Position numbers and translations under genes: made by a program
Origin: a virus
DNA length: 29,432 bases
Strand: one strand, 5' to 3'
IMG/VR virus record: IMGVR_UViG_3300017971_000177
The notes under the pieces: generated by a model
Told to the model about the DNA's origin: nothing
What the model saw: only the letters and a program-made list of their open reading frames with translations
The model's database searches: none
Shown: positions 1-29,432 of the stretch, piece after piece
Position numbering within the stretch: the stretch's first letter is position 1
Layout of the letters: each line of letters opens with the position of its first letter

Positions 1-31
1 AATACGACAGTTACACCTTTGCTGATGAAGC
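1..31. repeat. Terminal direct repeat, copy 1 (identical to 29402..29432); circular-assembly overlap
   Basis: aatacgacagttacacctttgctgatgaagc is present at both ends of the window. The frame of the last gene is continuous across the join. Confidence 0.95.
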
Positions 32-509
32 GGAAATGTTCACCGTTATCGAAGGTCAAGGCTACCTGATAAATGCCACTGAGGAGGGTGTATCGGGTGA
101 ATTGCAGTCCAACAATATCATCACTGATACCAATGCGGGAGAGGGGGATGCTACCTACCTTGACATGCATTGGATGGGTCAGATACCCTTAGACGACCTT
201 GAACCGCCAACGATGTCAGTTGAAGTTTATGTTACCTCAGCACGTAAGGGTAATTTCAAGATCCCGTCTAACTACAAGGTAGGTGGTCAGATGCGGAAGT
301 ATGTCAATTCACTGAATGGTTATGCGGGGGAACCAAACCTTAATGAGGAAGTCATCATTGAACCTGAAGTGTTGAACACCGTTACCACCACTTACACCAA
401 GACGCAGATACTTCAATGGATGGATGATAACGATGTGCCTAATGAATTGTATCAGGAGAGTTGGACGAAGGCGAAGTTAATCCTGGTTATCCTGGCTTGG
501 TTTGTTTGA
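1..509 (+). CDS. 3' portion of junction-spanning hypothetical late protein (173 aa in the circular molecule), hydrophobic C-terminus AKLILVILAWFV
   Basis: Frame 3 is open from base 3 to the stop at 507..509 and is contiguous with the ATG at 29389 through the terminal repeat. The ORF-track entry 36..509 is an internal Met. Confidence 0.75.
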   Translation, partial: YDSYTFADEAEMFTVIEGQGYLINATEEGVSGELQSNNIITDTNAGEGDATYLDMHWMGQIPLDDLEPPTMSVEVYVTSARKGNFKIPSNYKVGGQMRKYVNSLNGYAGEPNLNEEVIIEPEVLNTVTTTYTKTQILQWMDDNDVPNELYQESWTKAKLILVILAWFV

Positions 510-869
510 GCCTCCTTTCAGTAACTCCTCACCTGTCAAGGCAAAATAAAGGTTTTGAAGTTGGTGAACGTAATCAGCTGACGCTACAAAACAAGCGGTA
601 TCCCCGTCCTCTACCCAGTATTCAATAGTGTAACCGTTCCAACTCCAATTCTTGCTGTTAAGTATTCCAAAATCAATCAACCATTGTTCGGTTAGGGGGA
701 TGGGTATGGCTTTCCATCCGTTTGGTAGGGGATATTTATCCCGGTTTAAAACCCTGAATGTTTTATCTTTGTGTGTGATTCCGATAATAATCAATATCTC
801 ACCTGTTAACTGATCTTTAAAAAGGTTTCCTAATCTTAATTCTTTAGTTGTCGTTGTTTTATCCATCAT
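477..869 (-). CDS. Hypothetical early protein (130 aa)
   Basis: Long ORF. The track start at 872 is GTG; the first ATG is at 869, preceded by AAAGGAGGTGAT. It is the last gene of the minus-strand operon. Confidence 0.7.
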   Translation of the reverse strand: MMDKTTTTKELRLGNLFKDQLTGEILIIIGITHKDKTFRVLNRDKYPLPNGWKAIPIPLTEQWLIDFGILNSKNWSWNGYTIEYWVEDGDTACFVASADYVHQLQNLYFALTGEELLKGGSNKPSQDNQD

Positions 870-1155
870 CACCTCCTTTCAGTAATTCAATTAAATTATA
901 GTGCTTAATTAAAGCGGCAGTGTCTTTAAAGTTTCCTGTTTCATCTGGATGCTCCCATGTTCCGTCAGGATTCATATACCACCCCATCTCACCAATCCTA
1001 GTTATTGCATTTTCGAGAATTGTCGCTTGATGACCATTCACATGCTCGGAATGAGATTCAAGTATAAGTCCTAACTTACGATTAAATTCCTCAACTGTAT
1101 AAGCGTTAGTCGAAAACAACGCATATATTTTTTCTATGGCTGTTTCCTTTGTCAT
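859..1155 (-). CDS. Hypothetical early protein (98 aa)
   Basis: ATG at 1155 forms an ATGA overlap with the stop of the upstream ORF and follows AAGGAGG. The track start at 1173 is TTG. Confidence 0.65.
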   Translation of the reverse strand: MTKETAIEKIYALFSTNAYTVEEFNRKLGLILESHSEHVNGHQATILENAITRIGEMGWYMNPDGTWEHPDETGNFKDTAALIKHYNLIELLKGGDDG

Positions 1156-1424
1156 TGTTTCCTCCTTTTCCAATACGGTACTTTACTCTTCATTATTTTA
1201 TTGTGTTTACGCCTGTTGGCTTTCCTTAACTCGTGCCGGTCATCCAGGTCCTTTACTACGTGGTCCAGGTACCTGCTATCATATAGCAGTTCGACCTCAT
1301 TCATTATATCCCCACTGTGCTGCTTCTCGTACTGATCGATCGCCCAGTCCACAAGCGGCATGATATCAGTCGAGGGGTAATGCTCCAGATATGATACAAC
1401 TACTGATGTTATTTGTTTGATCAT
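1152..1424 (-). CDS. Hypothetical early protein (90 aa), basic C-terminus
   Basis: ATG-initiated ORF in the operon, translationally coupled to the next gene. Confidence 0.6.
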   Translation of the reverse strand: MIKQITSVVVSYLEHYPSTDIMPLVDWAIDQYEKQHSGDIMNEVELLYDSRYLDHVVKDLDDRHELRKANRRKHNKIMKSKVPYWKRRKQ

Positions 1425-1471
1425 TTTATTTCCTTATAAGTGAAGTCTACATATTCAACGTTATACTTATT

Positions 1472-1588
1472 TTAATATTGGGCTCTGATGGCTTCAATTT
1501 GTTCAATGTGATCTAGCACAATCTTCTCCGGAAAATCAATTCTAGCGCCGTTTCTGGTCAATCTGATGCGTTCTATTATTATCCCCAT
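1472..1588 (-). CDS. Possible 38-aa micro-ORF (MGIIIERIRLTRNGARIDFPEKIVLDHIEQIEAIRAQY)
   Basis: ATG at 1588 overlaps the end of the VRR-NUC gene, and the ORF fills an otherwise empty 150-bp gap. It is below the ORF-track length cutoff. Confidence 0.3.
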   Translation of the reverse strand: MGIIIERIRLTRNGARIDFPEKIVLDHIEQIEAIRAQY

Positions 1589-2058
1589 AATGGCAAAATA
1601 TCATCAAGAGTTTTTACTATAATATATTTGAACCCACGGCTCTCTACTTTCTTTTGAAACTTGATCTGCCTTTCACTTTGCCGGTCCGACTTAGAGAACT
1701 TTACCTCTATGTATACTGCACCAACATAACCAGGGATAGATGCGATCAGATCAGACGTGCCTACTTCGGTTGTGCCTGGTATCCATTTATCCTCGATCAG
1801 AGTACGTTCATGACCCAGGACATCTTTGACCTTTGACTTATTTACAAGTCTTCTGCCTGATGTAGTTACTTTCGTACAGATTCCACCCTTAAGCTCAATG
1901 AATTCACTTATTAGTGATTCGAGTTGAGCCGCAGACTTAGGTTTTTTTACATTAAATTCCTGGAGGAAGTACTTATGCGGTTCTTTCCCAGTTCGCGCCC
2001 GGTGTCGGTCTAATCTTAGGGACTTCAAGATTTCGTTTGCGTTTGATGATCCTTTCAT
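1579..2058 (-). CDS. VRR-NUC family nuclease
   Basis: GTSDLIASIPGYVGAVYIEVKFSKSDRQSERQIKFQKKVESRGFKYIIV carries the D...E-V-K...Q signature of VRR-NUC / PD-(D/E)XK nucleases. The only in-frame ATG is at 2058. Confidence 0.75.
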   Translation of the reverse strand: MKGSSNANEILKSLRLDRHRARTGKEPHKYFLQEFNVKKPKSAAQLESLISEFIELKGGICTKVTTSGRRLVNKSKVKDVLGHERTLIEDKWIPGTTEVGTSDLIASIPGYVGAVYIEVKFSKSDRQSERQIKFQKKVESRGFKYIIVKTLDDILPLWG

Positions 2059-2209
2059 AATTTGTACTAAATGTTAAGTAATATTCTATTTGTAAGTGAA
2101 ATATATCCCATAATTCAAGTATCTTATCACGTTGCCTTTCGTTGATAGGATAGGTTGTGTCTACCTTCATTTCATAAAGGAGCCACTTCATAACTTCTGT
2201 ATCAGTCAT
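1973..2209 (-). CDS. Hypothetical protein (78 aa)
   Basis: ATG at 2209 shares a base with the TAA of the helicase gene (TAATG). The 3' end overlaps the VRR-NUC gene by 86 nt. Confidence 0.5.
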   Translation of the reverse strand: MTDTEVMKWLLYEMKVDTTYPINERQRDKILELWDIFHLQIEYYLTFSTNYERIIKRKRNLEVPKIRPTPGANWERTA

Positions 2210-3429
2210 TAGAACGGTACGCCTCCTTCCTCATTATCTTCTATGAACATGTCCCTGGTTAATGTAAACACTCTACCAGTTTTCCAGTCAATAGATTCTT
2301 CAAAAGGTTTATATGACTGTGGTTCGCTTGCTACTAAACCGAAATCATCCTTTAATACTTTACGGATATAATTGATACTTATTTGATTGTTGTAATGAAA
2401 CCATTTTTCCTTAATATCCTTTGGTATAACTTTTAATTCATATTCATTATTATTACTAAACCAATCAACTATCAACTCGTTTAGTTCTTTATATAAACCT
2501 GACCTAGATGCTTCCTTAACCTGGTCCAGATACTCGTTTCTTAATTGATCAGGTGTGAAAACCATTCGATCATGAGAGTAATCTATTTCGGGCATATTTT
2601 TAAGATAGTATAATAAATAAGGTATTTCTTTTATTAAATCCTTTTCTATGTTATGATTCTTAATCCTTGGTTTATTAAGTTTCCTGATCCAAAACCTGAT
2701 CTCTTCCTGTTCAATCCTCATGAAGTCGCTTTCGTTATTAGTGGCCATCACTATTTTACCATAAAAGTCTATTTTCCTTGGTTCAACAAACTTCATGTGT
2801 AAAGTAATATGTTTAGCAGTGGCTAACGCTTTAATCTTTTCAACTGCAGATTTACGCTCAATTATTGTTTCGTCTATCCCTATTATATTAGCTCCTGCAT
2901 AATCACCATTAAAAGTGCTTCCTATAGATTCAGGGTTGATCATAGCCATATTTTGCCCAAAAATAGCGTTAAGTAAATTAAGAAACGTACTTTTACCAGT
3001 TTCCCTAACTTTTGATACTAACACTAATACAGGTAATATTTGAGTTGGTTCATCGTATAAAACTTTAAGGTATTGAAAACCAAGTTTATATTGATTACCG
3101 AATACTTCCCTCATTAAAACATGAGTCCAATAGATGCCTTTATATGGCTTGTCAGGTGGTGGTTTTTCTGGTTTATATGTAAGTTCATGATATATATTAT
3201 AGTTATTACCATGCTCTAACTTATAATTGTGATGATCTGGTTGAAGAGTAAATCTATCATACTTAGGTATATTATCCTTCATATAACGTAAACCTTCATC
3301 TTGCATCAATTCCTGTCTATTCCACTTTTCTAAGTATTTTATTTTAGTACCAAACCTTTTGTGATAGTCGTAAGTTACTTTGAAATAAGTGGTTCCGACT
3401 CTTATGTAAGTTTGTTCACTTTTCTCCAT
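2209..3429 (-). CDS. SF3 (P4/D5-type) replicative helicase, possibly with an N-terminal primase-associated domain
   Basis: Walker A VRETGKSTFLNLL, Walker B NIIGIDET, motif C IVMATNN. The size and architecture are typical of phage D5/P4-like NTPases. Confidence 0.75.
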   Translation of the reverse strand: MEKSEQTYIRVGTTYFKVTYDYHKRFGTKIKYLEKWNRQELMQDEGLRYMKDNIPKYDRFTLQPDHHNYKLEHGNNYNIYHELTYKPEKPPPDKPYKGIYWTHVLMREVFGNQYKLGFQYLKVLYDEPTQILPVLVLVSKVRETGKSTFLNLLNAIFGQNMAMINPESIGSTFNGDYAGANIIGIDETIIERKSAVEKIKALATAKHITLHMKFVEPRKIDFYGKIVMATNNESDFMRIEQEEIRFWIRKLNKPRIKNHNIEKDLIKEIPYLLYYLKNMPEIDYSHDRMVFTPDQLRNEYLDQVKEASRSGLYKELNELIVDWFSNNNEYELKVIPKDIKEKWFHYNNQISINYIRKVLKDDFGLVASEPQSYKPFEESIDWKTGRVFTLTRDMFIEDNEEGGVPF

Positions 3430-3668
3430 GGATCAAGTCCCCTCCTTACGAACTGCTTATTAATATTACTAATCAACTTCATGTTATTGTACTGAGACTC
3501 AATGAGTTGGAGCCTTTGTTGAAGGAGCATGATTGTGACCTGGGAGTTATTCCAGGTCACGCTCATTTGTAAGTTATCCATTTCGATCTGATCAACATAC
3601 GCCTCAATCTGATCAAGGTAATCATGTTGACGGTCGAACGCAAGGGATTCGCGGAGGTCGTTAAACAT
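3402..3668 (-). CDS. Hypothetical protein (88 aa), predicted coiled coil
   Basis: The ATG at 3668 overlaps the upstream stop by 8 nt. The track start at 3704 is TTG. Confidence 0.55.
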   Translation of the reverse strand: MFNDLRESLAFDRQHDYLDQIEAYVDQIEMDNLQMSVTWNNSQVTIMLLQQRLQLIESQYNNMKLISNINKQFVRRGLDPWRKVNKLT

Positions 3669-4041
3669 TGTCGAATAACTCAGGTTGATCCTTTTCTTGA
3701 ACAACAGGTTCCCATGCCCATAACCCTGTTACACAAACATTACCTGTGTCGATCGGGTGAGGTAAATCAGGGTGCCATCGTCCATTACAATACGCCCTGT
3801 CATCTTTGTTACAATGGAATTTTTGCCACTCTTTAATGTTGTTGCCACCTATATATAGGCTTACTTTATCTCCTTCTTTAAGCTCTCTACCTATTAACTT
3901 AGATAGTTTACTCGTCCTTGTTGATGGATTTTCACCAGTCCTGTTCATAAATAGTTCAATATATCCTATTCGTTTCTTTTCCTGGTGTTTTAATTCTACC
4001 TCTCTTATTGTTACAAGGTAAGTTTTTTCGATTGTTTTCAT
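3661..4041 (-). CDS. Hypothetical protein (126 aa), Cys/His/Trp-rich C-terminal half, coupled to the hydroxymethylase gene
   Basis: ATGA overlap with the stop of 4038..4763. No motif recognised. Confidence 0.6.
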   Translation of the reverse strand: MKTIEKTYLVTIREVELKHQEKKRIGYIELFMNRTGENPSTRTSKLSKLIGRELKEGDKVSLYIGGNNIKEWQKFHCNKDDRAYCNGRWHPDLPHPIDTGNVCVTGLWAWEPVVQEKDQPELFDNV

Positions 4042-4763
4042 GTTACTTGATTTTTATTTAACTTATTATTATACAGATGGAGATTATTAACTATATGAGT
4101 ATAGGTCCCCATCTTTAGACCTAACTCTAAGGTGATCTGTTCCTGCAACTTAGAAAAACAATAAGTATCATTCGGAAACCCGAACCACAGGTCATTGCTT
4201 CTCATCATCACAGTCATATGTAACCGGCTCTCGCGGATACTGAATTGAATGCCTAAGGTACAGATCACGTCCTTATCATTCATGTGTGCCTTATTGCCAT
4301 CGTACAGACTTATTACGGCTCTCCTTGTTTTAGGATCTTCCCGCAGTAGTTTAATTACTCCAGGTAGTTGATCTTTCCACCAGTAACCATAGTTGCTCAT
4401 GACGTTGCCGTCTTCGTCCCTGAGAGTATCCCACAGACTTGCACCCGCCTGGATGACTCTTGTAGGGTCCAGTGTTGCGTCCTTATACCATAACCATTCT
4501 TGTTCGGCATAAGACTTTGACCAGGCACGCCATTTGGGCAATTCTAAGCGCTTCTCTGGGCGTTTTATCAAAATCGTGGCGTTGTATATGGCTTTCGTTT
4601 TGGATTCATTAGAACCCATTAGATTGATCCATTTATAAAGCTCCTCGAACGCCTCAGATGCAGTTTCAAAAGTCCAGATACTACATTCCGGTACTGCCAA
4701 AACCACCTTCTCCTCGTTCAGTTTGAGTTGAATGGATTGACTCGTCTTCGATTGGTGTTGCAT
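4038..4763 (-). CDS. Thymidylate-synthase-fold deoxynucleotide hydroxymethylase/methylase, T4 gp42 (dCMP hydroxymethylase)-like
   Basis: Motifs seen: EQEWLWYK, SNYGYWW, DPKTRRAVISLYD, catalytic Cys in DVICTLGIQF, MMRSNDLWFGFPND and NNLHLYNN. Asp occupies the position of ThyA Asn177 / T4 gp42 Asp179. Confidence 0.8.
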   Translation of the reverse strand: MQHQSKTSQSIQLKLNEEKVVLAVPECSIWTFETASEAFEELYKWINLMGSNESKTKAIYNATILIKRPEKRLELPKWRAWSKSYAEQEWLWYKDATLDPTRVIQAGASLWDTLRDEDGNVMSNYGYWWKDQLPGVIKLLREDPKTRRAVISLYDGNKAHMNDKDVICTLGIQFSIRESRLHMTVMMRSNDLWFGFPNDTYCFSKLQEQITLELGLKMGTYTHIVNNLHLYNNKLNKNQVT

Positions 4764-5169
4764 AATTCACTGGTGTTAAGATAAACTGAATGATTTTCTG
4801 ACCTGCGTATATATCGATCCAGTGCGGACTGACGTTAGTCAGGTGTATGTGAATTTCTCCCTGGTAGTCTTCATCGATTACCTGGGCACCTACGTATAGT
4901 TTATACCTGGTGGCGATCCCGGACTTGTTAAAGGCGATCAAAGCGTGTCCTGGTGGTATTTCTACCTTGATCCCGGACGGTATGTTGACGCCCTCGTGTG
5001 GACCCAACCGGACTGTCTTCGAGTCAAGTCTCATTGATAGGTGTTCGTTCTTGTCCAGGAACTTCTTAATGAAGTTATCCGTGAACTCAGGTATAAAAAA
5101 GTCGATACCTGCCGACTGTGGTGTGCCCCGTTCAGGGGACTTAACTTTTAAGGTTTTTTTGTATTTCAT
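4681..5169 (-). CDS. dut: Trimeric dUTPase-fold nucleotide pyrophosphatase (dUTPase, possibly also dCTPase)
   Basis: All five dUTPase motifs are present: SAGIDF, NKSGIA, VIDEDYQGEIHIHL, GQKIIQF and ERGEGGFGSTG. Confidence 0.85.
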   Translation of the reverse strand: MKYKKTLKVKSPERGTPQSAGIDFFIPEFTDNFIKKFLDKNEHLSMRLDSKTVRLGPHEGVNIPSGIKVEIPPGHALIAFNKSGIATRYKLYVGAQVIDEDYQGEIHIHLTNVSPHWIDIYAGQKIIQFILTPVNYATPIEDESIHSTQTERGEGGFGSTGM

Positions 5170-5170
5170 A

Positions 5171-6133
5171 TTATAATAATATTAACTCGTTTATATCTAC
5201 TACTGTCATGCTTGTATCGATCACGGGTCTTGCTGACTGGATAGTGTCATGAGCCATTTTACTGATCCACTCACCTGCGGCCGGTTGTACTGCCTGACCC
5301 ATCTGAGCAGCCCAGGTCTTAGGGTTGCCTTTGAACTCGTACGTGTCAGGATAGGTTCCTATACGTTTGAGCTCGTTGATCCCTAGCCACCGGTTTTCAG
5401 TCGGATGAATCTTACCATATCCCATAAGTACATTTGAAGGTTTATCAAAATCCATCCTGTAAATACCCAATGAAGGGTGCCTTGGTTCAATCTCTTTGTC
5501 CCAGACTTTAGTCATGTTCTGTCCTGGAAGTAGTTGATCTCCGAACAGGTCCAGGTGAGACTGGCACGTTCTTGAGTATATGTCCTGCCGTCCAGGGTGT
5601 GGTACGTCCTTAATGACATCACCGACGGTGAACGGCCTGGATATAGTGCTCCACTCCAGTTCATATTGACTTAAGATAATAAACACTCGCTTACGGTTCT
5701 GAGGAACTCCCAGATACTTGGTGTTGTGTTTGAACAGGGTCATCTTGTAACCCTCTTGTTGATACTTATCCAGTAACCATTTACCTTTTTTTAATATCCC
5801 CATGACTGATTCTGACACGAATACCTTAGGTTGGTAGTGCCTTATCAAATGAATACCTAAGTAATGATGACTAAAACGTGGGTCGTTCTCCTTTTTGTTG
5901 GAGTTAGCCACTGAGAACATAGCACAGGGTGGATTGCCAAAGATATAGTCGATCTGACCGTAGTCATTGAACTCCCAAAGGTCCTTAAATACTATGTGTT
6001 CTACAAGTGGGTGGTTTGCCTTGAACGTCTCTGTGTAGTTATGTTCAGGCTCATAATTAGCGAGAACGTCGAAGTGCCATTGTGCTCCTTCGACGAACCC
6101 GCCTGCGTAAGTACAGAATGATATCGCTCTCAT
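5171..6133 (-). CDS. DNA (cytosine-5)-methyltransferase
   Basis: Motif I FCTYAGGF, motif IV GNPPCAMFS, motif VI ESV (ENV-like), motif VIII PQNRKRVFI, motif IX RWLGINELKRIGTYPDTYEF, motif X GQAVQP. Confidence 0.85.
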   Translation of the reverse strand: MRAISFCTYAGGFVEGAQWHFDVLANYEPEHNYTETFKANHPLVEHIVFKDLWEFNDYGQIDYIFGNPPCAMFSVANSNKKENDPRFSHHYLGIHLIRHYQPKVFVSESVMGILKKGKWLLDKYQQEGYKMTLFKHNTKYLGVPQNRKRVFIILSQYELEWSTISRPFTVGDVIKDVPHPGRQDIYSRTCQSHLDLFGDQLLPGQNMTKVWDKEIEPRHPSLGIYRMDFDKPSNVLMGYGKIHPTENRWLGINELKRIGTYPDTYEFKGNPKTWAAQMGQAVQPAAGEWISKMAHDTIQSARPVIDTSMTVVDINELILL

Positions 6134-6381
6134 ATATCCTCATCTCCCATTATCCTGTCTTCATACTCCTGGTCAAGGTAAAAATCTTCCGGAGGGTTAA
6201 ACCAACTTTCCAATACTGAAATCAGATTATAGTAATCACCTGATGTTGCTTTTTCTAACTCTTCGTTGATCTCATCCTGTGTCCAGCCGTTAGCCATGGC
6301 TTGCTGTTGAAAGTACCCCATAAGGGCAAAGGCATTTCCATCCTGTCCCACTAAGGTACCTGTCATTTTAACTTTTGTCAT
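6130..6381 (-). CDS. Hypothetical small acidic protein (83 aa)
   Basis: ATG-initiated ORF that overlaps both neighbouring genes within the operon. Confidence 0.6.
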   Translation of the reverse strand: MTKVKMTGTLVGQDGNAFALMGYFQQQAMANGWTQDEINEELEKATSGDYYNLISVLESWFNPPEDFYLDQEYEDRIMGDEDI

Positions 6382-6667
6382 CTTTACTATTATTTAATTG
6401 TTCCCTATAATCGTTCCACTGTGCTATATAACCTACTGCATCGAACAGGTTATCTTCTTTATGGTGATATGCCTCCCTGGATAGTTTTAAGGCAATGATG
6501 CTCATATAAACCATATCAGGGTGCTTAGCTTCGTCATACTCTTCGTCCATGAGGCCGGCCAGGAGCTTCCCTGCCTGCTTCATGTTACGTTGGTAGGGAC
6601 CATACATGCGGTCCTTCTCTTCAGATCGCTCATAGGCGACCTTGTGTTGCTCTAACAGTATACTCAT
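6368..6667 (-). CDS. Hypothetical protein (99 aa); possibly a small all-alpha NTP-pyrophosphatase-like protein
   Basis: The pattern R-M-YGP...IALKLSRE...D-AVGY resembles a small phage family I associate with MazG-like folds. That assignment is not verifiable here. ATGA coupling to the upstream gene. Confidence 0.55.
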   Translation of the reverse strand: MSILLEQHKVAYERSEEKDRMYGPYQRNMKQAGKLLAGLMDEEYDEAKHPDMVYMSIIALKLSREAYHHKEDNLFDAVGYIAQWNDYREQLNNSKDDKS

Positions 6668-7143
6668 GATTGTTCTATACTCCAGGTGATCTTCACATTA
6701 ACATTTAAGTTCAGGTTCTTGGTGATCGTCTCAGTGATCGCCTGCTGGAACGCGTTCACCAGTTCAGGGCTGACCTGTTCGGGTGACTTCTTAGGCACGG
6801 GCTGCTTAGCCAGGGAATCGTTGAGCTTCTTCTGTTTAGCCTTATTATCTTTCCTAGTCTGTTCCCTTTCACGCCAGTACTCACGCTCACGGTCGATCAA
6901 CTGGTCTGCCAACTTGAACAACTTGACATCGTTCTTACTGTAGTACGTTTCCCACACACCAGGGCGAACCTGTTTAATCTTGTCCCAATCTTCCAGCCAG
7001 TTGAGCGTCATGACATTCACCTTACGGGCTGAGCAATACTGAGACTTCATGATCCTCTTACCGTGCTCTACGTCGCTGTGAAACTCGTTCAGGAACCCTA
7101 CGAGCTTAGTCTGTTTATCTACCTTTTCATTGGTGTCATTCAT
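6664..7143 (-). CDS. Hypothetical protein (159 aa) with a basic, Lys-rich central segment
   Basis: The ATG at 7143 overlaps the exonuclease stop by 8 nt. The track start at 7161 is TTG. Confidence 0.6.
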   Translation of the reverse strand: MNDTNEKVDKQTKLVGFLNEFHSDVEHGKRIMKSQYCSARKVNVMTLNWLEDWDKIKQVRPGVWETYYSKNDVKLFKLADQLIDREREYWREREQTRKDNKAKQKKLNDSLAKQPVPKKSPEQVSPELVNAFQQAITETITKNLNLNVNVKITWSIEQS

Positions 7144-7780
7144 CGTCCTGAAGTTTATCAATTATTGACTGAACTAATTCATTGAACGGTCTGAGGCGGG
7201 CTTCCATCTCACTGATGAGCTTCTCGTCCCTTTCGATGCGGTGTACCCTGGCTCTGAGATTACCATCAAACTCAGGGTGATACGTCATGAAGTCCGTCCA
7301 TTCAGCGCCTGTGATCATCATCTGGAACTGCATCTGGTAGACGTACCTGCGTTCAGGACCCTCCATGATATAGTTAATGTGGTTCGCCCACTGCGGGCAC
7401 TTGATCTCCAACAGCCCTATGATCATATCATCGCCGTTCAGTATTGTTCCGTCAGGAGTACAGCCTGACATGTTGTCTCCAGGGATGAACCCAGGCATAT
7501 CGACACTGATACCGCGTGAGGTGCTGTAGACTTCCCTGGCGTCGGCTTCGTACTCGATCCCCCATTCCATCTGCCAGGTGGTGATATCGTAGCCGGTTAT
7601 CTCACTCATATCTATGCCCATACGTTGTAACGCCAGTTCGTAGGCATACTTCTTTGCAGTCTCTCCGAAGATATCTCCGGAACGCCTCCCCTTTGTCATA
7701 AAGTCGACTGCTCTCGAGGCTGTTATTCGTCCTTGTCTCATAACTTGAAAATTATTATTAATATTACTTTGATTGTCCAT
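7136..7780 (-). CDS. YqaJ/lambda-Exo-like recombination exonuclease
   Basis: RITASRAVDF, EYEADAREVY, CTPDG, GLLEIKCPQ and YVYQMQFQMMITGAEWTDF give the PD-(D/E)XK YqaJ pattern. Confidence 0.8.
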   Translation of the reverse strand: MDNQSNINNNFQVMRQGRITASRAVDFMTKGRRSGDIFGETAKKYAYELALQRMGIDMSEITGYDITTWQMEWGIEYEADAREVYSTSRGISVDMPGFIPGDNMSGCTPDGTILNGDDMIIGLLEIKCPQWANHINYIMEGPERRYVYQMQFQMMITGAEWTDFMTYHPEFDGNLRARVHRIERDEKLISEMEARLRPFNELVQSIIDKLQDDE

Positions 7781-7865
7781 ACTACCAGGCTCATCAACAA
7801 TTCTACTAGTACCTGTATCAACCCTGCAGCCTGGTTTACAAGGCTGATGATCAACACGTAGCCAT

Positions 7866-8216
7866 TCACACCTTATACTTACTTAGGTCTTCCTTGACAC
7901 GTACTGCCAGGGTCTGTTGACCGAAGGCGTTCACCATCTGTGGCCTGAGAATGATCTTCGTGCCGGTCCAGTCCTCTACGTTCTGACTGCCTGCGATCTT
8001 AGCGATCACCTTAGCGTTCGTCTTATTCAGGACCATCATCTTGTCTGCCTCTTTGAACGAGACAACTACAACGTCCTCTTTTTCCCGCCCGTTGAAGGCT
8101 TCATCGATACCGACCTTGTCGATCGTTACTGTTACCTCTTTTCCGTCGAGGTCTTCCCCTGCTATGAACCGGTAGTCGTAATTTTTTTTCCAGGGACCTT
8201 TTAACACTTTTTTCAT
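7866..8216 (-). CDS. Hypothetical protein (116 aa)
   Basis: ATG-initiated ORF upstream of the exonuclease. An ssDNA-binding or annealing role is only a positional guess. Confidence 0.6.
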   Translation of the reverse strand: MKKVLKGPWKKNYDYRFIAGEDLDGKEVTVTIDKVGIDEAFNGREKEDVVVVSFKEADKMMVLNKTNAKVIAKIAGSQNVEDWTGTKIILRPQMVNAFGQQTLAVRVKEDLSKYKV

Positions 8217-8217
8217 G

Positions 8218-8646
8218 TTACTTGTTTTTAATTAATACTTGATATTTATTAACTGCATCCTGATAGTTATCAAAATAACCACCTTGAATGTATTTATTAT
8301 CCTTTCTTATTATCACTCTCCACTTATTATTGTGTTTAGACCAGTATACTCCCTTTGGTTTATTTTTACGATGGGACACGTTTTGTTATACTGTTAACAA
8401 TCTTAAGTTCTCAATCCTATTGTCATCCTTGATATGGTTGATGTGATCTATTACTAATCCATCAGGTATTTTTCCATAGTGGAGCTCCCATATAACTCTA
8501 TGAACTAAATAGGCTTTACCTTTTAATCTAAACATTAAGTACCCAGTGTTCATTTTTGTACCAACTTGCTTACCAATCCAATTCCTGGGTGATAACTTTA
8601 CTTTCCAGTACAACTTTCCATCTTTATACTCAACATAGTCGTTCAT
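8218..8646 (-). pseudogene. HNH-AP2 homing endonuclease interrupted by an in-frame TAA (8386..8388)
   Basis: The N-terminal part has LVHRVIWELHYGKIPDGLVIDHINHIKDDNRIENLRLLTV, then TAA. The same frame continues QNVSHRKNKPKGVYWSKHNNKWRVIIRKDNKYIQGGYFDNYQDAVNKY (AP2-type DNA-binding domain) to a TAA at 8218..8220. Confidence 0.8.
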
Positions 8647-8706
8647 ACCACCAAAACCCCGCCAGGTACAGGACTTGGCAGGGTGGTGCGGGGCGTTCAG
8701 TGGTAG

Positions 8707-8931
8707 TTACTCTTCCATCAGGAAATCCTTGGTCTGATCATGCCACAGTTGGAACTTATCGCCATCGCAATACATGTCTATGTCAGCCAGGTCCTGGGCG
8801 GCTTCGAGTAGGGTCTGCAACCCTTCGGCTGCCTTGGTTTTCTCTTTCGTGTTGGACTTCCTGATCAGCCTGTCATAGTAGTACTCAAACCTGTCTTCCA
8901 GGCCGTCTATCAATACTTGTGTTGTGTCCAT
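8707..8931 (-). CDS. Hypothetical acidic protein (74 aa)
   Basis: The ATG at 8931 lies 1 nt after the upstream stop. The track start at 8940 is TTG. Confidence 0.55.
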   Translation of the reverse strand: MDTTQVLIDGLEDRFEYYYDRLIRKSNTKEKTKAAEGLQTLLEAAQDLADIDMYCDGDKFQLWHDQTKDFLMEE

Positions 8932-8932
8932 C

Positions 8933-9301
8933 TTAGTCAATTAACGTTAGTTTATCCTCAGCCACACTGGTGTGGTACTCCTTGCCATCATAGTGATACT
9001 TAATTCTATACTCACTGCCACGCTCTGCAGGGTTGAACGCAACCAGGGTACAGAATTCTATGTCATGGTACTCTTTCGTGTCCCAGTCATAGTGCTGGGC
9101 GGTGGTCGAGTACTCACTATGGAGTTCGTGCACCGGATTAGGTATTCCATTTCTTACTACGTCCAGAACCATGTCCAGGCGGTAACTGTCTTTAAGGACC
9201 TCCACTAAGAACACAGCCAGGTCCTGATCATTACCCATCTCATTTACTAGCATCGTTGCCACTTGCTCGATAGGCAGTTCAATTTGAATTGTCTTACTCA
9301 T
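8933..9301 (-). CDS. Hypothetical acidic protein (122 aa)
   Basis: ATG-initiated ORF in the early operon. Confidence 0.6.
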   Translation of the reverse strand: MSKTIQIELPIEQVATMLVNEMGNDQDLAVFLVEVLKDSYRLDMVLDVVRNGIPNPVHELHSEYSTTAQHYDWDTKEYHDIEFCTLVAFNPAERGSEYRIKYHYDGKEYHTSVAEDKLTLID

Positions 9302-9342
9302 TTTTATTAAGGTTTGATGGTCCTGGTGGACCGGTTAATTAA

Positions 9343-9528
9343 TTACAACTCGATCTTAGGCAGGTGTGTCTCACGAGCCAGGTCATACTTCCTTGTGATG
9401 TGGTCGTCATACAGGCGCTCTAACAACGTCTCCAGGTAGTTCTTGAGCGGGCGGTTCTCAGCCTTGGCTAACTCTACCAGGTGTGTGTGCGACTCTTCTT
9501 TGATAACGATTGACTTTAATTTAGGCAT
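9343..9528 (-). CDS. Ribbon-helix-helix (CopG/Arc-like) DNA-binding protein
   Basis: N-terminal beta strand KSIVIKEESH followed by helices LVELAKAENRPLKNYLETLLERL. Confidence 0.6.
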   Translation of the reverse strand: MPKLKSIVIKEESHTHLVELAKAENRPLKNYLETLLERLYDDHITRKYDLARETHLPKIEL

Positions 9529-9583
9529 TTTTTAATTGTTTTTTTATGTTATTCATTCAATGGTGTAAAGATATATATAATGT

Positions 9584-9778
9584 TTATACGTTCGACACAG
9601 TTGGCCGTATTTTTTTATTATACCTATCAGGTACGTCAAACTTAACTCCCATCTTTAACAGGGATTTGATCATGTGATTCTCCAGGTTCTCACTGACACT
9701 TGTTTTGTACTTACGGCACAACTCCTGGAATTCAGTGTGTACCTCACTGTTGACATAGATAGTTACTTTTTTATTCAT
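9584..9778 (-). CDS. Ribbon-helix-helix DNA-binding protein, first gene of the early operon
   Basis: MNKKVTIYVNSEVHTEFQELCRKYKTSVSENLENHMIKSL fits the RHH pattern. The alternative ATG at 9841 would translate through the operator palindromes. Confidence 0.6.
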   Translation of the reverse strand: MNKKVTIYVNSEVHTEFQELCRKYKTSVSENLENHMIKSLLKMGVKFDVPDRYNKKIRPTVSNV

Positions 9779-9784
9779 GGTTGT

Positions 9785-9856
9785 AAATTTATACGTACAA
9801 AGATACAAATTTATACGTATAAATGGCACAGTTTTGATCATTTTGTACGTACAAAG
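9785..9856 (-). promoter_or_regulatory. Early promoter with three TACGTA-core operators
   Basis: O1 is at 9787..9802 (hybrid half-sites). O2 is ATTTATACGTATAAAT at 9809..9824 (perfect 16-mer palindrome). O3 is TTTGTACGTACAAA at 9842..9855 (perfect 14-mer palindrome). Centres are 22 and 32 bp apart. The minus-strand TAAATTTG (-7 box, plus-strand 9806..9813) overlaps O2. Confidence 0.55.
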
Positions 9857-9898
9857 TTTTTAGGGAACTGACGACGAAGACGCGAAAAAGATAGGTTG

Positions 9899-10056
9899 TG
9901 TAATACCAATGTAACAACTTGTAATATCCAATTTGTCTTATCTAGTCTATATTTATTACATTTATTACAATATTACAATAATGATAAAACTATATGGGAT
10001 CGTATATATATTTAATATTAGAACTTTCGATGGGGTGTAATATGTAATGTGTAATA
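9899..10056. repeat. Heptamer repeat cluster TGTAATA / TATTACA in the divergent intergenic region
   Basis: TGTAATA at 9899 and 9920. TATTACA at 9954, 9963 and 9971. Tandem TGTAATA-TGTAATG-TGTAATA at 10036..10056. Confidence 0.8.
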
Positions 10057-10093
10057 TAACTTGTGTCGGCTGGGATTATTGAAAATTTTTGCT

Positions 10094-10132
10094 TATCTTT
10101 GCCTCCCACATTGAAAACCAGTGTGTTATAAT
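10094..10132 (+). promoter_or_regulatory. Candidate promoter(s) for the plus-strand gene at 10147
   Basis: TATCTTTG (TAnnTTTG) at 10094..10101 and an extended -10-like TGTTATAAT at 10124..10132. Confidence 0.3.
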
Positions 10133-10146
10133 CGCTTAAACGGAAA

Positions 10147-10455
10147 ATGGCTGGAAATACCTTTGCTAATGATCGCGAACTCGCACGCGAAGCCGGCCGA
10201 AAAGGTGGCAAAGTAAAAAAATACGATGAGGCCTGGCTTCGACTCGGACATAAGTTAACCGGAGACCATGCTGAACACATCAGGAAGTACATGAATAAAC
10301 TTATTAGAGAGGGACGTGACGATGAGTTCTTTGAAAACTACCTAAAACTATTACAGTACTTCAAACCTAAGGTAATGGCACATGCAGTTAAAACCCAAAC
10401 TGAAATTACTTTCCGTTTCGAGTCAGGCGACAAAGAGTTATTCGAGGATATTTAG
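10147..10455 (+). CDS. Hypothetical protein with an N-terminal KGG motif; possible small terminase subunit or regulator
   Basis: NDRELAREAGRKGGKV at the N-terminus and LKLLQYFKPKV near the C-terminus resemble some small terminases. It is the only plus-strand gene between two minus-strand blocks. Confidence 0.6.
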   Translation: MAGNTFANDRELAREAGRKGGKVKKYDEAWLRLGHKLTGDHAEHIRKYMNKLIREGRDDEFFENYLKLLQYFKPKVMAHAVKTQTEITFRFESGDKELFEDI

Positions 10456-10548
10456 ATTTATTTCTAACGGCACGGAGTTATTCGGTGTGGTTTATTATTA
10501 TTTCGGCTTAAAAATGTCTTAGAATTGATCTATGGGCTTCTGGTGGGC

Positions 10549-10578
10549 AAAAAAAAGCCGGACAAATACATCCGGCTT
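10549..10578 (-). terminator. Rho-independent terminator of the accessory cassette
   Basis: On the minus strand the stem AGCCGGA / TCCGGCT with an 8-nt loop is followed by T8. Confidence 0.7.
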
Positions 10579-10586
10579 GAATCCAA

Positions 10587-10647
10587 TTAAGGTAGGTTTT
10601 TAATTAACCAGGTTAAGGTAGGTTTTTAATTAACCAGGTTAAGGTAG
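10587..10647. repeat. Tandem 26-bp repeat, about 2.3 copies (ttaaggtaggtttttaattaaccagg)
   Basis: Exact copies at 10587..10612 and 10613..10638, plus a 9-nt partial third copy. Confidence 0.9.
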
Positions 10648-10747
10648 TTAATATTATTTCAACTATCGTGCCAATAAGCCAGGCAATGGCTGATCCCCAA
10701 ATGACCAGGCACAATATGAACAGTGTTATGATTATAAACAGTATCAT
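10613..10747 (-). CDS. 44-aa hydrophobic micro-protein (MILFIIITLFILCLVIWGSAIAWLIGTIVEIILTTLTWLIKNLP)
   Basis: The ATG forms an ATGA overlap with the stop of 10744..11025. The sequence is predicted to be membrane-spanning. It is below the track cutoff. Confidence 0.5.
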   Translation of the reverse strand: MILFIIITLFILCLVIWGSAIAWLIGTIVEIILTTLTWLIKNLP

Positions 10748-11025
10748 TCTGGTATCAGTTCAAATACTATATCAATATCATAGTAATCCTTAAAACCAAG
10801 GCTTTTGATTTCGTAGTGGTATCCATCATTAAAATCACTAAAAATAAGTGTGGTTATCAATACATCCTGGTTAAATTCAAGGTGAAACAACTTGTGGATA
10901 TTACTTAAATTATATTCACTAAATTCCAGGGTGAATGTTATTTTACCTTTACTCGTTTTGATCACAGGGAAGTCATCCAGATCAAAATGAGACAAAATTT
11001 TGTTAAATACTTCGTTTGAATTCAT
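10744..11025 (-). CDS. Hypothetical small acidic protein (93 aa, no Arg)
   Basis: ATG-initiated ORF in a very AT-rich segment. Confidence 0.6.
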   Translation of the reverse strand: MNSNEVFNKILSHFDLDDFPVIKTSKGKITFTLEFSEYNLSNIHKLFHLEFNQDVLITTLIFSDFNDGYHYEIKSLGFKDYYDIDIVFELIPE

Positions 11026-11100
11026 ACTAATTTATTTATTATAGGGTTATTATTATTATCGTGCCTGGGGTTGCCAGGATCACAGTATGCTGAGTGTGGA

Positions 11101-11129
11101 TAAAAAAGGGGGATCATCTCTGATCCCCA
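11101..11129 (-). terminator. Rho-independent terminator after the 161-aa gene
   Basis: On the minus strand GGGGATCA-gaga-TGATCCCC (8-bp stem) is followed by CTTTTTT, 7 nt after the stop codon. Confidence 0.7.
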
Positions 11130-11135
11130 TTCGAT

Positions 11136-11621
11136 TTACTTTTTGGCTTTTTCAGCCTGGGCTTTTTCAGCCTCCTTTTTGGCCTGGGCTTCTTTTTTGG
11201 CGGCTTCTTTTTCCGCCTTTTGTTTAGCCAACTTTTCCTCACGTTCTTTTGCCTTTTGGGCTTTTATTGCCTCAGGAAAAGTTTGTACCCACTTTTGAGG
11301 CACAGGCTTTTTAATGGTTTTGAAATAACTTTCAATAACAATTTGCCTGTTATTTCCCCCAATTCCGGCGGCTGGTTTTGATCCCTTCAAAACCTGGGCA
11401 CCAATTTCCTCCATTACAAAGGAAATATTTTGAAACCTTAATGGGTATTGGTTTGCCTTACGTCCAAACTTTTTTTCCAATTCCCTGAAAAAATCAACTT
11501 TTTTGAATTTTTCTTTTTTGGCCTGAAGTTTGGTCATTTCGACATAAACATCTAGGCATGCCTGGAATTCTTCCACGGTCCATGCCACGGGTTCATTTAC
11601 CCTGTTTTCTTTTTTGATCAT
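11136..11621 (-). CDS. Hypothetical protein with a Lys/Ala/Glu-rich, histone-H1-like C-terminal tail
   Basis: The C-terminal 45 aa read AQKAKEREEKLAKQKAEKEAAKKEAQAKKEAEKAQAEKAKK. The N-terminal domain begins WTVEEFQACLDVY...GRKANQYPLRFQNISFV. Confidence 0.7.
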   Translation of the reverse strand: MIKKENRVNEPVAWTVEEFQACLDVYVEMTKLQAKKEKFKKVDFFRELEKKFGRKANQYPLRFQNISFVMEEIGAQVLKGSKPAAGIGGNNRQIVIESYFKTIKKPVPQKWVQTFPEAIKAQKAKEREEKLAKQKAEKEAAKKEAQAKKEAEKAQAEKAKK

Positions 11622-11679
11622 AAAATTAAGAACTGTTTAATTAATAAATATGGAGTATTTCCCCATTTGAATTATAATA

Positions 11680-11706
11680 CAAATATACAAATAATATGTA
11701 TACAAA
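11680..11706 (-). promoter_or_regulatory. Bacteroidota-type promoter P1 (TTTG ... TATATTTG on the minus strand)
   Basis: The minus strand reads TTTGtatacatattatttgTATATTTG, about 60 nt upstream of the ATG at 11621. It is duplicated at 11849..11875. Confidence 0.45.
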
Positions 11707-11751
11707 CACACTTTTGGGTAAAAAAGTTTTAACTATTTTTAGTAAAAAATA

Positions 11752-11844
11752 CTAATGAGTCAAAAGTAATATAATACCCACGACCTGGATGATTGTATAA
11801 ACAATTGCCAGGACATTAAATACTAGGTTTTTTGAATTTTTCAT
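11752..11844 (-). CDS. Possible 30-aa hydrophobic micro-protein (MKNSKNLVFNVLAIVYTIIQVVGIILLLTH)
   Basis: The ATG lies 4 nt downstream of the P2 -7 box, so the mRNA would be leaderless or nearly so. One predicted TM helix. Confidence 0.35.
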   Translation of the reverse strand: MKNSKNLVFNVLAIVYTIIQVVGIILLLTH

Positions 11845-11848
11845 AGGG

Positions 11849-11875
11849 CAAATATACAAATAAAAAGTATACAAA
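11849..11875 (-). promoter_or_regulatory. Bacteroidota-type promoter P2 (duplicate of P1)
   Basis: The minus strand reads TTTGtatactttttatttgTATATTTG. The palindrome AGTAAAAAATACT lies upstream of both copies (11741..11753 and 11900..11912). Confidence 0.45.
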
Positions 11876-12081
11876 CCATAAAAAACATATAATACTTTTA
11901 GTAAAAAATACTGACAAAAAACTAATCAAAAACATATATGAATTGACTGGTATATAATCAAGGTCATATGTGAATAACCTATATATGAATGGGGCTGGTC
12001 ATATATAACCCATCAACATATATAACATATGTATATACATTGAATATGTCTACCATTGAACACCTGGTCAATGTATCTCTC

Positions 12082-12218
12082 TCTCGATCCCTGGGTTGTG
12101 GTGTCTCGATCTCCAGGCTGTCTCCCTCTCGATCTGTGGGTTGCCTCTCTCTCAGCCCAGGAGGCCAGGCTCTCTCAGCCCCCCAGGTGTGTGTCTCTCA
12201 ACCCAGGAGACGAGAGGC
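12082..12218. repeat. Array of six phased ~23-bp iterons (GC-rich island)
   Basis: Units start at 12082, 12104, 12127, 12150, 12173 and 12196. The first three begin TCTCGATC and the last three TCTCAGCC or TCTCAACC. Five of six contain CCWGG. Confidence 0.85.
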
Positions 12219-12324
12219 GCGCAACGGCCTCCACCCAACCAATTTCACAAAATACAACATCAGTAGAACTATTCAAATCCAATATATAAAAGGGGAAAGC
12301 TAAAATTTTTCAAGCCCGAAACGG

Positions 12325-13476: not shown

Positions 13477-13646
13477 TAGACTATGGTAAAAGACTGAACA
13501 AGCTGAGCCGGAGAACCGACCCAGCCATGTTCAGAGTCCTTAATAAAAATCAAGTATGAGCACGATAAACAAAGTTTTACAAAATTAATTAAAAAATGGA
13601 TCAAAATGAAAAAATTGTTATAACTTCGTGAAATACAGTCTTTACT

Positions 13647-29399: not shown

Positions 29400-29432
29400 G
29401 AAATACGACAGTTACACCTTTGCTGATGAAGC
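29389..29432 (+). CDS. 5' end of junction-spanning hypothetical late protein (continues at 1..509)
   Basis: ATG at 29389 overlaps the TGA of the preceding ORF (ATGGCAAATGA). MANEKYDSYTFADEA continues in frame into position 32 onward. Confidence 0.75.
   Translation, partial: MANEKYDSYTFADE
29402..29432. repeat. Terminal direct repeat, copy 2 (identical to 1..31)
   Basis: Exact 31-nt identity with the window start. Confidence 0.95.

Follow-up and report, generated by a model that had tools for sequence, protein, structure and literature searches.

Genome organization and gene content of the locus

The IMG/VR virus record IMGVR_UViG_3300017971_000177 (29,432 nt; hereafter the window, meaning the whole stretch of DNA that was analysed) is a complete phage genome of 29.4 kb, the minus strand of which carries a compact gene block predicted to modify cytosine nucleotides. 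ENA and Logan also hold this contig, the source assemblies ERZ27256798 and SRR6963591 being short-read assemblies, and positions 1-31 are identical to positions 29402-29432, a 31-nt terminal direct repeat of the kind that assembly leaves on complete genomes which are circular or circularly permuted. The early operon runs on the minus strand from 7780 down to 2209, and its genes follow one another directly or overlap, the intergenic distances ranging from -44 to +1 nt. Six tightly packed open reading frames (ORFs) of this operon span 3661-6667; all of them had been listed in a preliminary description of the window, made by a model from the letters alone, and all exist, on the minus strand, at the coordinates given. 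From the upstream end, they encode a small four-helix protein of the DUF6378 family (6368-6667; PF19905, E = 1e-6), an 83-amino acid (aa) phrog_1933 protein (6130-6381; E = 8.9e-17), a C5-cytosine DNA methyltransferase (C5-MTase; 5171-6133; PF00145 DNA_methylase, E = 1e-31, profile positions 1-319 of 324) and a trimeric-dUTPase-fold pyrophosphatase of deoxynucleoside triphosphates (dNTPs) with five motifs (4681-5169; PF00692, E = 3.2e-19, with a weak dCTP-deaminase-like DCD match at 3e-5). These are followed by a thymidylate synthase (TS)-fold enzyme, predicted to be a folate-dependent 5-hydroxymethylase of deoxycytidine monophosphate (dCMP; longest ORF 4038-4763; PF00303 Thymidylat_synt, E = 1.9e-21), and by a 126-aa Cys/His/Trp-rich orphan ORF without family match (3661-4041), which is ATGA-coupled to the TS-like gene. 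PHROGs agrees with the Pfam calls for the TS-fold enzyme, the dUTPase and the C5-MTase. The stretch 3661-6667 is best explained as the part of this phage's early operon that serves nucleotide modification.

The plus-strand half of the genome encodes the portal, the major head protein, the head-tail adaptor, the major tail protein and the tape measure; no tail sheath was found among these structural genes, and the phage is for this reason regarded as siphovirus-like. No tRNA genes were found in the window. Judging from the nearest isolate relatives of the terminase and the dUTPase, which are phages of Bacteroides, Croceibacter and Prevotella, the host probably belongs to the Bacteroidota. A megablast search of 3400-7200 against 50,697 phage records gave no match. 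Scans over positions 1-13600 returned 43 promoters (36.7 +/- 5.7 in shuffled sequence) and 13 terminators (10.0 +/- 3.1), neither count being above expectation, and operon boundaries were not drawn from these scans.

Gene start and family placement of the TS-fold enzyme

The gene of the TS-fold enzyme probably starts at TTG 4700 or GTG 4706, as judged from the N-termini of its homologues and from the structure model. These homologues are 210-222 aa long and start 2-6 residues ahead of a conserved F-x-x-A-x-E-A-F helix, and the only canonical start codons that fit such N-termini are the two named, giving a protein of 220-222 aa. The overlap with the dUTPase-fold gene, noted in the preliminary description, does exist; its length of 83 nt stems from taking the first ATG (4763) as the start, and 20-26 nt is the likelier figure. 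A GAGGAG Shine-Dalgarno sequence lies 9 nt upstream of TTG 4700 but counts for little here, the nearest relatives being phages of Bacteroidota. The M49 start of the public gene call (193 aa) was rejected as too short, since it deletes a strand and a helix (residues 8-28) modelled at pLDDT ~96.

The AlphaFold model of the 220-aa protein (pLDDT 93, pTM 0.90) matches TS-family structures in Foldseek with a probability of 1.00. The TM-scores are 0.89 to MilA, a CMP hydroxymethylase (rmsd 1.7 Å), 0.83-0.86 to the dCMP hydroxylase of phage HY126 (0.81-0.84 when normalised to the target), ~0.80 to E. coli ThyA and 0.70-0.72 to the dCMP hydroxymethylase of phage T4 (T4 dCH, gp42). In HMMER searches against solved structures MilA is again the best match (2.9e-18), followed by several ThyA structures and, at lower ranks, by T4 gp42 (4.9e-12) and the HY126 dCMP hydroxylase entries (~2e-11). 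The chemistry is not decided by the fold alone. Relatives are named 'thymidylate synthase' in public annotations, whereas the scores of the window enzyme against the NCBIfam ThyA equivalogs are all far under the cut-offs (81.6 vs 327 bits). No close relative occurs among isolates, the best being Bacteroides fragilis phages of the BF503/BF486 series (BF503P1/P2/P4, BF486P2/P3 and also BF494P1) with 41% identity for TS(D) and 38% for the dUTPase, and the metagenomic family comprises 341 matches at 43-51% identity.

Discriminating residues of the TS-fold enzyme

Discriminating positions were read from a MAFFT alignment of the window ORF with E. coli ThyA, T4 gp42 and RB69 gp48, for which annotated records supplied the sequences, and from an alignment of 52 relatives of the enzyme. 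The peptides on which the preliminary description had relied (EQEWLWYK, SNYGYWW, DPKTRRAVISLYD, DVICTLGIQF and MMRSNDLWFGFPND) are present in the translations, and the Asp that it had placed at the specificity position is indeed there: HMMER matches to ThyA structures pair RSNDLWFGFPND with RSADIFLGVPFN, and in the MAFFT alignment the Asp of RSNDLWFGFPND pairs with N177 of E. coli (RSCDVFLGLPFN) and D179 of T4 gp42 (RSNDVVFGFRND). This Asp is invariant in the 52 aligned relatives, and the catalytic Cys (ThyA C146, T4 C148) is invariant in both alignments. An Asp at ThyA N177 is the determinant of cytosine recognition (PMC6400193, PMC13326640), and in the MetaGPA study the two features that most clearly told TS homologues of cytosine-modified contigs apart from those of unmodified ones were Asp177 and a residue other than His at position 147 (PMC8670742); in the window enzyme H147 is replaced by Thr. 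By itself, Asp at N177 converts ThyA into a dCMP methylase (PMC8670742). It no longer implies hydroxymethylation, since the same Asp is found in the 5-hydroxy-dCMP synthases known since 2025-26, which combine N177D and an acidic residue at L143 with flavin and O2 chemistry and carry a diagnostic D169N substitution (PMC13326640).

Other positions also bear on the reaction. Three residues ahead of the catalytic Cys, the window enzyme (KDVIC) and T4 gp42 (D145, SDFMC) have an Asp where E. coli ThyA has Leu143 (ALAPC), and family-wide conservation of this Asp is at least 90%. In the ternary complex of T4 dCH, D145 activates the substrate water and is a signature of hydroxymethylases, a D145N variant being inactive, and a conserved Ser stands two residues ahead of the catalytic Tyr (PMC6400193). 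The same Ser is found ahead of the equivalent of ThyA Y94 in the window enzyme (MSNYGYWW) and as S94 in an identical SNYG in T4, and S102-N103-Y104 are invariant among the relatives. Ser167 and Arg126, which mark the deoxyribose form and are Ala and Lys in MilA (PMC5175136), are kept (RSND and TRRAVIS in the window, RAND and SKRAVIQ in MilA). Asp169 and Trp80 of ThyA are likewise kept, as Asp170 and Trp90, and both are invariant across the 52 relatives, whereas RB69 gp48 has RSQN in place of RSND and lacks Trp80. Finally, the window protein stops ~10 aa past H207-x-Y209 (HLY) where E. coli ThyA runs on for ~55 residues, so that the C-terminal tail of ThyA is missing. In ThyA this tail seals the active site for hydride transfer.

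As far as can be read from sequence, the predicted product of 4038-4700 has every feature of a folate-dependent dCMP 5-hydroxymethylase, and this signature differs from those of dTMP synthases, CMP enzymes and flavin-dependent 5-hydroxy-dCMP synthases. The residue set and the additional comparison at D169 and W80 thus bear out the preliminary suggestion of a dCMP-directed hydroxymethylase candidate rather than a ThyA, and we consider it quite likely that the TS-fold enzyme is a dCMP hydroxymethylase.

The module in relatives and its alternative pyrophosphatases

TS-fold relatives with Asp at the ThyA N177 position, hereafter TS(D), were collected from IMG/VR as 65 enzyme-seeded loci, with a further eight from exact-protein look-ups, and were complemented by 79 new DUF6378-seeded loci; the ORFs of these loci were searched with our own profiles. 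The relatives originate from sewage and from coastal or marine viromes. Among 111 distinct TS(D) proteins, 74 are accompanied by MazG only and 33 by a dUTPase-fold protein of the window's clade only, none by both, and four by neither, these four lying mostly on truncated contigs (Fisher p = 3.7e-24 for mutual exclusion of MazG and dUTPase). The MazG proteins are ~100 aa long, are encoded mostly immediately downstream of TS(D) and also match PRA-PH, a Pfam family that co-occurs with TS on cytosine-modified contigs (PMC8670742). No MazG was found in the window. The clean replacement of one protein by the other argues for equivalent roles of MazG and the dUTPase-fold enzyme; if T4 gp56 is taken as the model, the shared role may be hydrolysis of dCTP (and dUTP), which would feed dCMP to the hydroxymethylase and lower dCTP.

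The dUTPase-fold protein itself adjoins the TS-fold gene and has five motifs, as the preliminary description had reported; they read AGIDF, NKSG, VIDEDYQGE, GQKIIQ and RGEGGFGSTG and are conserved in its clade as AGIDF, NKSG, VIDxDYQGE, GQKxxQ and GFGSTG. Its alignment with solved dUTPases covers the full length and takes in motif V RGEGGFGSTG. Its NCBIfam dut score of 90.9 bits is under the cut-off of 102.55 bits, so the protein is divergent, and a conserved Gly ahead of (V/L/T)ID is Gln in the window protein and Cys in the clade. An assignment of dCTP-versus-dUTP specificity from Lys-for-Arg changes in motifs II and IV was dropped, since the same changes occur in the genuine dUTPase of feline immunodeficiency virus. 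A scan of IMG/VR with the dUTPase as a single protein returned only one truncated relative. In the Croceibacter phage P2559Y (L159, NC_023614), a dUTPase of the window's clade (43% identical) is followed directly by P2559Y_0036 (4941-5465, annotated 'hypothetical protein'), a decayed TS(D) remnant in which the N-terminal helix region matches (3.7e-9) but neither the catalytic Cys nor the RSND motif is left.

DUF6378 is a real, conserved third partner of the module. The family comprises at least 4372 homologues; it is present in 39 of the 73 enzyme-seeded loci, and TS(D) lies within 5 kb in 57 of the 79 DUF6378-seeded ones, with the specificity Asp readable in nearly all. Moreover, single 246-aa ORFs in two loci (L137 508-1248 and L147 1030-1770) fuse a complete DUF6378 (residues 1-87) to a complete five-motif dUTPase (residues 108-246), and in the second of these loci a TS(D) gene lies just upstream of the fusion ORF. 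These fusions tie DUF6378 functionally to the dUTPase, and do not reveal its chemistry. The preliminary description had considered the 6368-6667 product possibly NTP-pyrophosphatase-like, a view that was dropped as unsupported: the sole Pfam match is DUF6378, hhalign against the MazG of the module gave a probability of 0.3%, and no similarity to MazG-like enzymes was found in sequence, profile or fold. The AlphaFold model consists of four helices with a moderate pLDDT of 67.5, and at this model quality a Foldseek search of the PDB returned nothing under E = 5; a profile search of the PDB gave no match. The searchable literature mentions DUF6378 in three genome-annotation tables only, and no description of a triad of DUF6378, pyrophosphatase and TS(D) was found there.

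The conserved unit is therefore composed of DUF6378, a dUTPase-fold enzyme or MazG, and TS(D), the window having the dUTPase version. Relatives differ in the cargo of the slot that separates DUF6378 from the pyrophosphatase/TS pair. In 20 distinct relatives this slot holds a class-I S-adenosylmethionine (SAM) methyltransferase (Methyltransf_23/25/12; e.g. L005 4742-5533), and in ~16 loci a three-gene set (e.g. L013 1775-4513) of unassigned 316-aa and 302-aa proteins and a 297-aa homologue of pyridoxal phosphate (PLP)-dependent enzymes (PF00291, 3e-6), while in the closest relative (L012) it holds an unassigned 315-aa protein. The SAM methyltransferase and the PLP set are candidate tailoring enzymes for cytosine hypermodification.

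Where a TS(D)/MazG locus has no DUF6378, an 87-aa helical protein is usually encoded ~1.5 kb downstream; it occurs in 25 loci (e.g. L073 7407-7670), only three of which also have DUF6378. It has no Pfam match, resembles neither DUF6378 nor MazG at the profile level (hhalign probability of 4% for DUF6378), and may be a functional analogue of DUF6378. The cultured Bacteroides phage BF503P2 (L001, OP172671) encodes two different TS-fold enzymes (4109-4915 and 6989-7669), which each carry the specificity Asp (RSSDMMKLLPYD and RSNDLIYGFCND) and flank a dUTPase of the window's clade; DUF6378 is absent. BF503P2 is a tractable isolate for the testing of cytosine modification.

C5-methyltransferase and small ORFs

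The C5-MTase is complete, as the preliminary description had it, with a full-length PF00145 match and with the Pro-Cys of motif IV, the Glu of motif VI and QxRxR of motif VIII all kept; the corresponding segments of the window protein and M.HaeIII are GNPPCAMFS/GGPPCQSWS, SESV/AENV and QNRKRVF/QDRKRVF. The best relative in an isolated phage is 27% identical, and a scan of IMG/VR with this single protein returned no relative. The combination of TS(D) with a C5-MTase is indeed unusual, being found in one of the 111 distinct TS(D) loci and absent from the other 110. The further idea of two coupled routes to one carbon found no support, as the methyltransferase occurs in no relative and its slot holds other cargo there. 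Together with the 83-aa ORF it is probably a lineage-specific insertion into the variable slot and independent of the module, and it most likely works on its own, methylating remaining unmodified C as a sequence-specific orphan enzyme. A C5-MTase cannot methylate cytosine already substituted at C5, so that only residual C would be open to it. DNA methylases were also seen beside DUF6378 and ThyX in Faecalibacterium phage FP01 and near the dUTPase of P2559Y. Only the catalytic half of the window enzyme aligns to M.HaeIII; GGCC is depleted, not tolerated, which speaks against GGCC as its target but points to no particular site.

The 83-aa ORF is overlap-coupled to both the C5-MTase and DUF6378. 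Homologues of it occur here and there among unrelated phages (T4-likes of Acinetobacter, Listeria phages and mycobacteriophages), and among TS(D) loci it is found only in copies of the window. The ATGA overlap of the TS-like stop with the start of the 126-aa ORF (4041-4038), which the preliminary description had pointed out, is read directly from the sequence. The suggestion made there that this ORF could be a pathway component is not borne out: it has no Pfam, PHROG or NCBIfam match, an exhaustive HMMER search of 1.84e9 representative proteins returned only itself and one marginal 37-residue match, and it lies beside TS(D) in no other locus. The 126-aa ORF is an orphan without demonstrable role.

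Predicted pathway and its alternatives

In the pathway proposed here, the dUTPase-fold pyrophosphatase would cleave a pyrimidine dNTP to the monophosphate, namely dCTP to dCMP if it is equivalent to the MazG that it replaces and to T4 gp56. The catalytic Cys of the TS-fold enzyme would then attack C6 of dCMP and the methylene group would be taken from 5,10-methylene-tetrahydrofolate; judging from the signature residues, water would be added instead of hydride transfer, giving 5-hydroxymethyl-dCMP. Bringing this nucleotide into phage DNA would fall to the kinases and the DNA polymerase of the host, and this is the weakest step because the phage encodes neither kinase nor polymerase. DUF6378 would work with the pyrophosphatase, a link suggested by the fusions. 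To this reading as a whole, that is, a dCMP hydroxymethylase module whose product is made for incorporation into phage DNA, we assign a probability of about 0.55. As a class, TS(D177) contigs were enriched by physical selection for fully modified cytosine (PMC8670742).

A number of observations weigh against this reading. No kinase of deoxynucleoside monophosphates (dNMPs) was found in the window, either as a family match or as an ORF of at least 40 aa with a Walker A motif, and none is among the conserved neighbours in relatives. Neither was a phage DNA polymerase found in the 29.4-kb genome nor a DNA glycosyltransferase in any scanned window ORF; the absence of a recognisable kinase or glycosyltransferase, already remarked upon in the preliminary description, is thus upheld by the family searches. 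TS homologues expressed in vivo without the cognate kinase gave trace incorporation only (PMC13326640). GGCC is depleted 2.6-fold (31 observed vs 80.6 expected, z = -7.8) and AGCT 1.7-fold (47 vs 79.5). Such depletion is typical of phages whose C-containing sites are still open to type II restriction and suggests continuing selection by restriction of the GGCC/AGCT type, and the avoidance of GGCC argues mildly against a long-standing complete replacement of C. As for the enzymes, Asp or Glu at L143 is common to the 5-hydroxy-dCMP synthases, the call between hydroxymethyl and hydroxyl hanging mainly on D169 and W80, and dCMP hydroxymethylation is a prediction from sequence throughout the subfamily. 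The dUTPase-fold protein has all the canonical motifs and aligns to genuine dUTPases, and in P2559Y the same dUTPase clade adjoins only a decayed TS remnant. Similarly, DUF6378 adjoins ThyX in phage FP01 and is therefore not specific to cytosine chemistry. Among other palindromes, CTAG is depleted (20 observed vs 49.4 expected) and CCGG and TCGA are over-represented (66 vs 44.6 and 106 vs 79.9, respectively); the palindrome bias may give a clue to the site recognised by the methyltransferase that the phage encodes.

Much of the above would also fit an active dCMP hydroxymethylase the product of which is not incorporated in bulk, its purpose being to reshape pools (dCMP/dCTP, or a drain on folate one-carbon units) or to achieve partial substitution, with protection provided by the C5-MTase and by site avoidance. 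Such a role, which we regard as the main rival reading, unlikely though not negligible, accords with a complete 29.4-kb genome lacking kinase, polymerase and glycosyltransferase, with the strong avoidance of GGCC and AGCT, with the presence of an independent C5-MTase and with the trace incorporation seen in vivo when the cognate kinase is missing (PMC13326640). It accords less well with the enrichment of TS(D177) contigs for fully cytosine-modified DNA (PMC8670742) and with the 111 relatives that keep the module without a neighbouring kinase, which suggests that host kinases suffice; furthermore, the putative hypermodification enzymes beside the module in some relatives are sensible only if the base reaches DNA.

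The reaction itself might be a different one. A flavin-dependent 5-hydroxy-dCMP synthase of the RB69 gp48 / HY126 AfhB type, leading to DNA with 5-hydroxycytosine, is quite improbable: such enzymes are of similar size, lack the C-terminal tail, reach Foldseek TM-scores of 0.83-0.86 (HY126 dCMP hydroxylase) and have N177D and L143D/E in common with the window enzyme (PMC13326640), but their diagnostic D169N is absent here (RSND vs RSQN in RB69 gp48), the folate-contacting Trp80 lost in RB69 gp48 is kept, Asp170 and Trp90 are invariant in the 52 family members, and no glycosyltransferase is present to use the 5-hydroxyl. Improbable, too, is a dCMP methylase of the XP12 type, with both genes leading to 5-methylcytosine (5mC) and the TS-fold enzyme making 5-methyl-dCMP. 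Although Asp at N177 alone makes a dCMP methylase of ThyA (PMC8670742) and 5mC as the product would suit the chemistry of the adjacent C5-MTase, neither the hydrophobic Leu143 nor the site-sealing tail is present, and the water-activating Asp and Ser pair of T4 dCH stand in their stead. An ordinary salvage pair of dUTPase and thymidylate synthase making dTMP, with an unrelated DNA methylase alongside, is what the public annotation of relatives would imply, and dUTPase/ThyA pairing is common in phages; such a pair is nevertheless highly improbable here, given Asp and not Asn at the uracil-selecting position (invariant in 52 relatives and read in nearly all of the 57 DUF6378-seeded TS matches), Thr for His147, Asp for Leu143, the absent tail and ThyA equivalog scores of 81.6 vs 327 bits.

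The dCMP hydroxymethylase module could also be taken further than proposed here. DUF6378, pyrophosphatase and TS(D) would then constitute a self-sufficient route of cytosine replacement, independent of any phage kinase and widespread in small aquatic and gut phages, in which DUF6378 would be required (e.g. by retuning the pyrophosphatase to dCTP or by coupling to host kinases), together with site-specific 5mC on residual C in the present phage, whose DNA would thus bear two kinds of C5 mark from two unrelated chemistries. This far-reaching version we hold to be decidedly unlikely.

Other genes of the early region

Upstream of the module, the minus strand carries at 6664-7161 and 7136-7780 a YqaJ-type exonuclease (PF09588, 7e-18) and, following it, an unassigned 165-aa ORF, the latter occupying the slot expected for a single-strand annealing protein. 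A VRR-NUC-like gene (1579-2058) and a VapE/DUF5906 primase-helicase-like gene (2209-3429) are also present and, with the foregoing pair, constitute a minimal replication and recombination set without polymerase. An HNH_3 endonuclease ORF (8386-8646) and an AP2-like basic ORF (8218-8379) lie on the minus strand in one frame and are split by a single TAA; reading across the stop gives …NLRLLTV*QNVSHRKNKPKGVYW…, and the two look like one stop-interrupted homing-endonuclease gene, whether a pseudogene, an assembly error or a case of read-through.

Comparison with known systems and significance

In the T-even pathway, the dCTPase gp56, the hydroxymethylase gp42, the dNMP kinase gp1 and alpha- and beta-glucosyltransferases act together. 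The window enzyme shares with T4 gp42 the TS fold and catalytic Cys, an RSNDxxFGFxND motif with the cytosine-selecting Asp, the Asp ahead of the Cys, the Ser of SNYG and the lack of a tail, and in both systems a dNTP pyrophosphatase gene is adjacent. Unlike the T4 system, it is encoded in a genome of 29 kb rather than 169 kb, without dNMP kinase, glucosyltransferase or phage polymerase, and with a DUF6378 partner and a C5-MTase, neither of which T4 has; the enzyme is ~25% identical to gp42 (~220 vs 246 aa), and its pyrophosphatase has the trimeric dUTPase fold in place of the MazG-like fold of T4. MilA, the CMP 5-hydroxymethylase of mildiomycin biosynthesis in Streptomyces, is the best match in both sequence and structure and has Asp at both signature positions, whereas it is a bacterial enzyme of secondary metabolism with 318-325 aa, and its Ala176 and Lys133 favour ribose, the window enzyme carrying instead the Ser and Arg typical of enzymes that act on deoxyribonucleotides.

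With the TS(D177) homologues of the MetaGPA report (PMC8670742), the window enzyme has in common Asp177, a residue other than His at position 147 and, in its relatives, a PRA-PH/MazG-type partner and an origin in sewage and in coastal or marine viromes; DUF6378, the exchange of MazG for dUTPase and a C5-MTase partner are not described in that report, and the window has neither a carbamoyltransferase nor a deaminase. The 5-hydroxy-dCMP synthases (RB69 gp48, DLP3 gp80 and HY126 AfhB; PMC13326640) are likewise short, tail-less TS-fold proteins with N177D and an acidic residue at L143 (TM-scores of 0.83-0.86), whereas the window enzyme keeps Asp169 and Trp80 and is accompanied by no arabinosyl- or glycosyltransferase and no sugar-nucleotide genes. 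A phage C5-MTase in an early DNA-modification region is also a feature of the C5-MTase and TET/5mYOX systems (PMC8256090), in contrast to which a search of the window found no TET/JBP-type dioxygenase and no glycosyltransferase; 5-hydroxymethylcytosine (5hmC) would here come from the nucleotide pool and not from oxidation of 5mC. Overall, the predicted chemistry is that of T4 gp42 and not a new kind of system, and metagenomic TS(D177) enzymes tied to cytosine modification have already been published (PMC8670742). The departures from the T-even paradigm are the kinase-less 29-kb context, the dUTPase fold in the position of MazG or gp56, DUF6378 with its fusions, and a C5-MTase unique to this phage. 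The enzyme call is solid and will not surprise specialists, while the module architecture and the link to DUF6378 are modestly new.

If the proposed reading is true, pre-replicative cytosine hydroxymethylation would not be limited to large T4-like phages with a full enzyme set, and would occur in 29-kb siphovirus-like phages that use host kinases and the host polymerase. It raises the questions of whether a dUTPase fold can serve as a dCTPase, what role DUF6378 plays, and whether a single genome can contain both 5hmC and enzymatically made 5mC. The result further bears on annotation, as relatives are routinely labelled 'thymidylate synthase', and on viromes, in which such DNA would differ in its behaviour toward restriction enzymes, bisulfite or enzymatic methyl sequencing (EM-seq) and modification-dependent defence systems.

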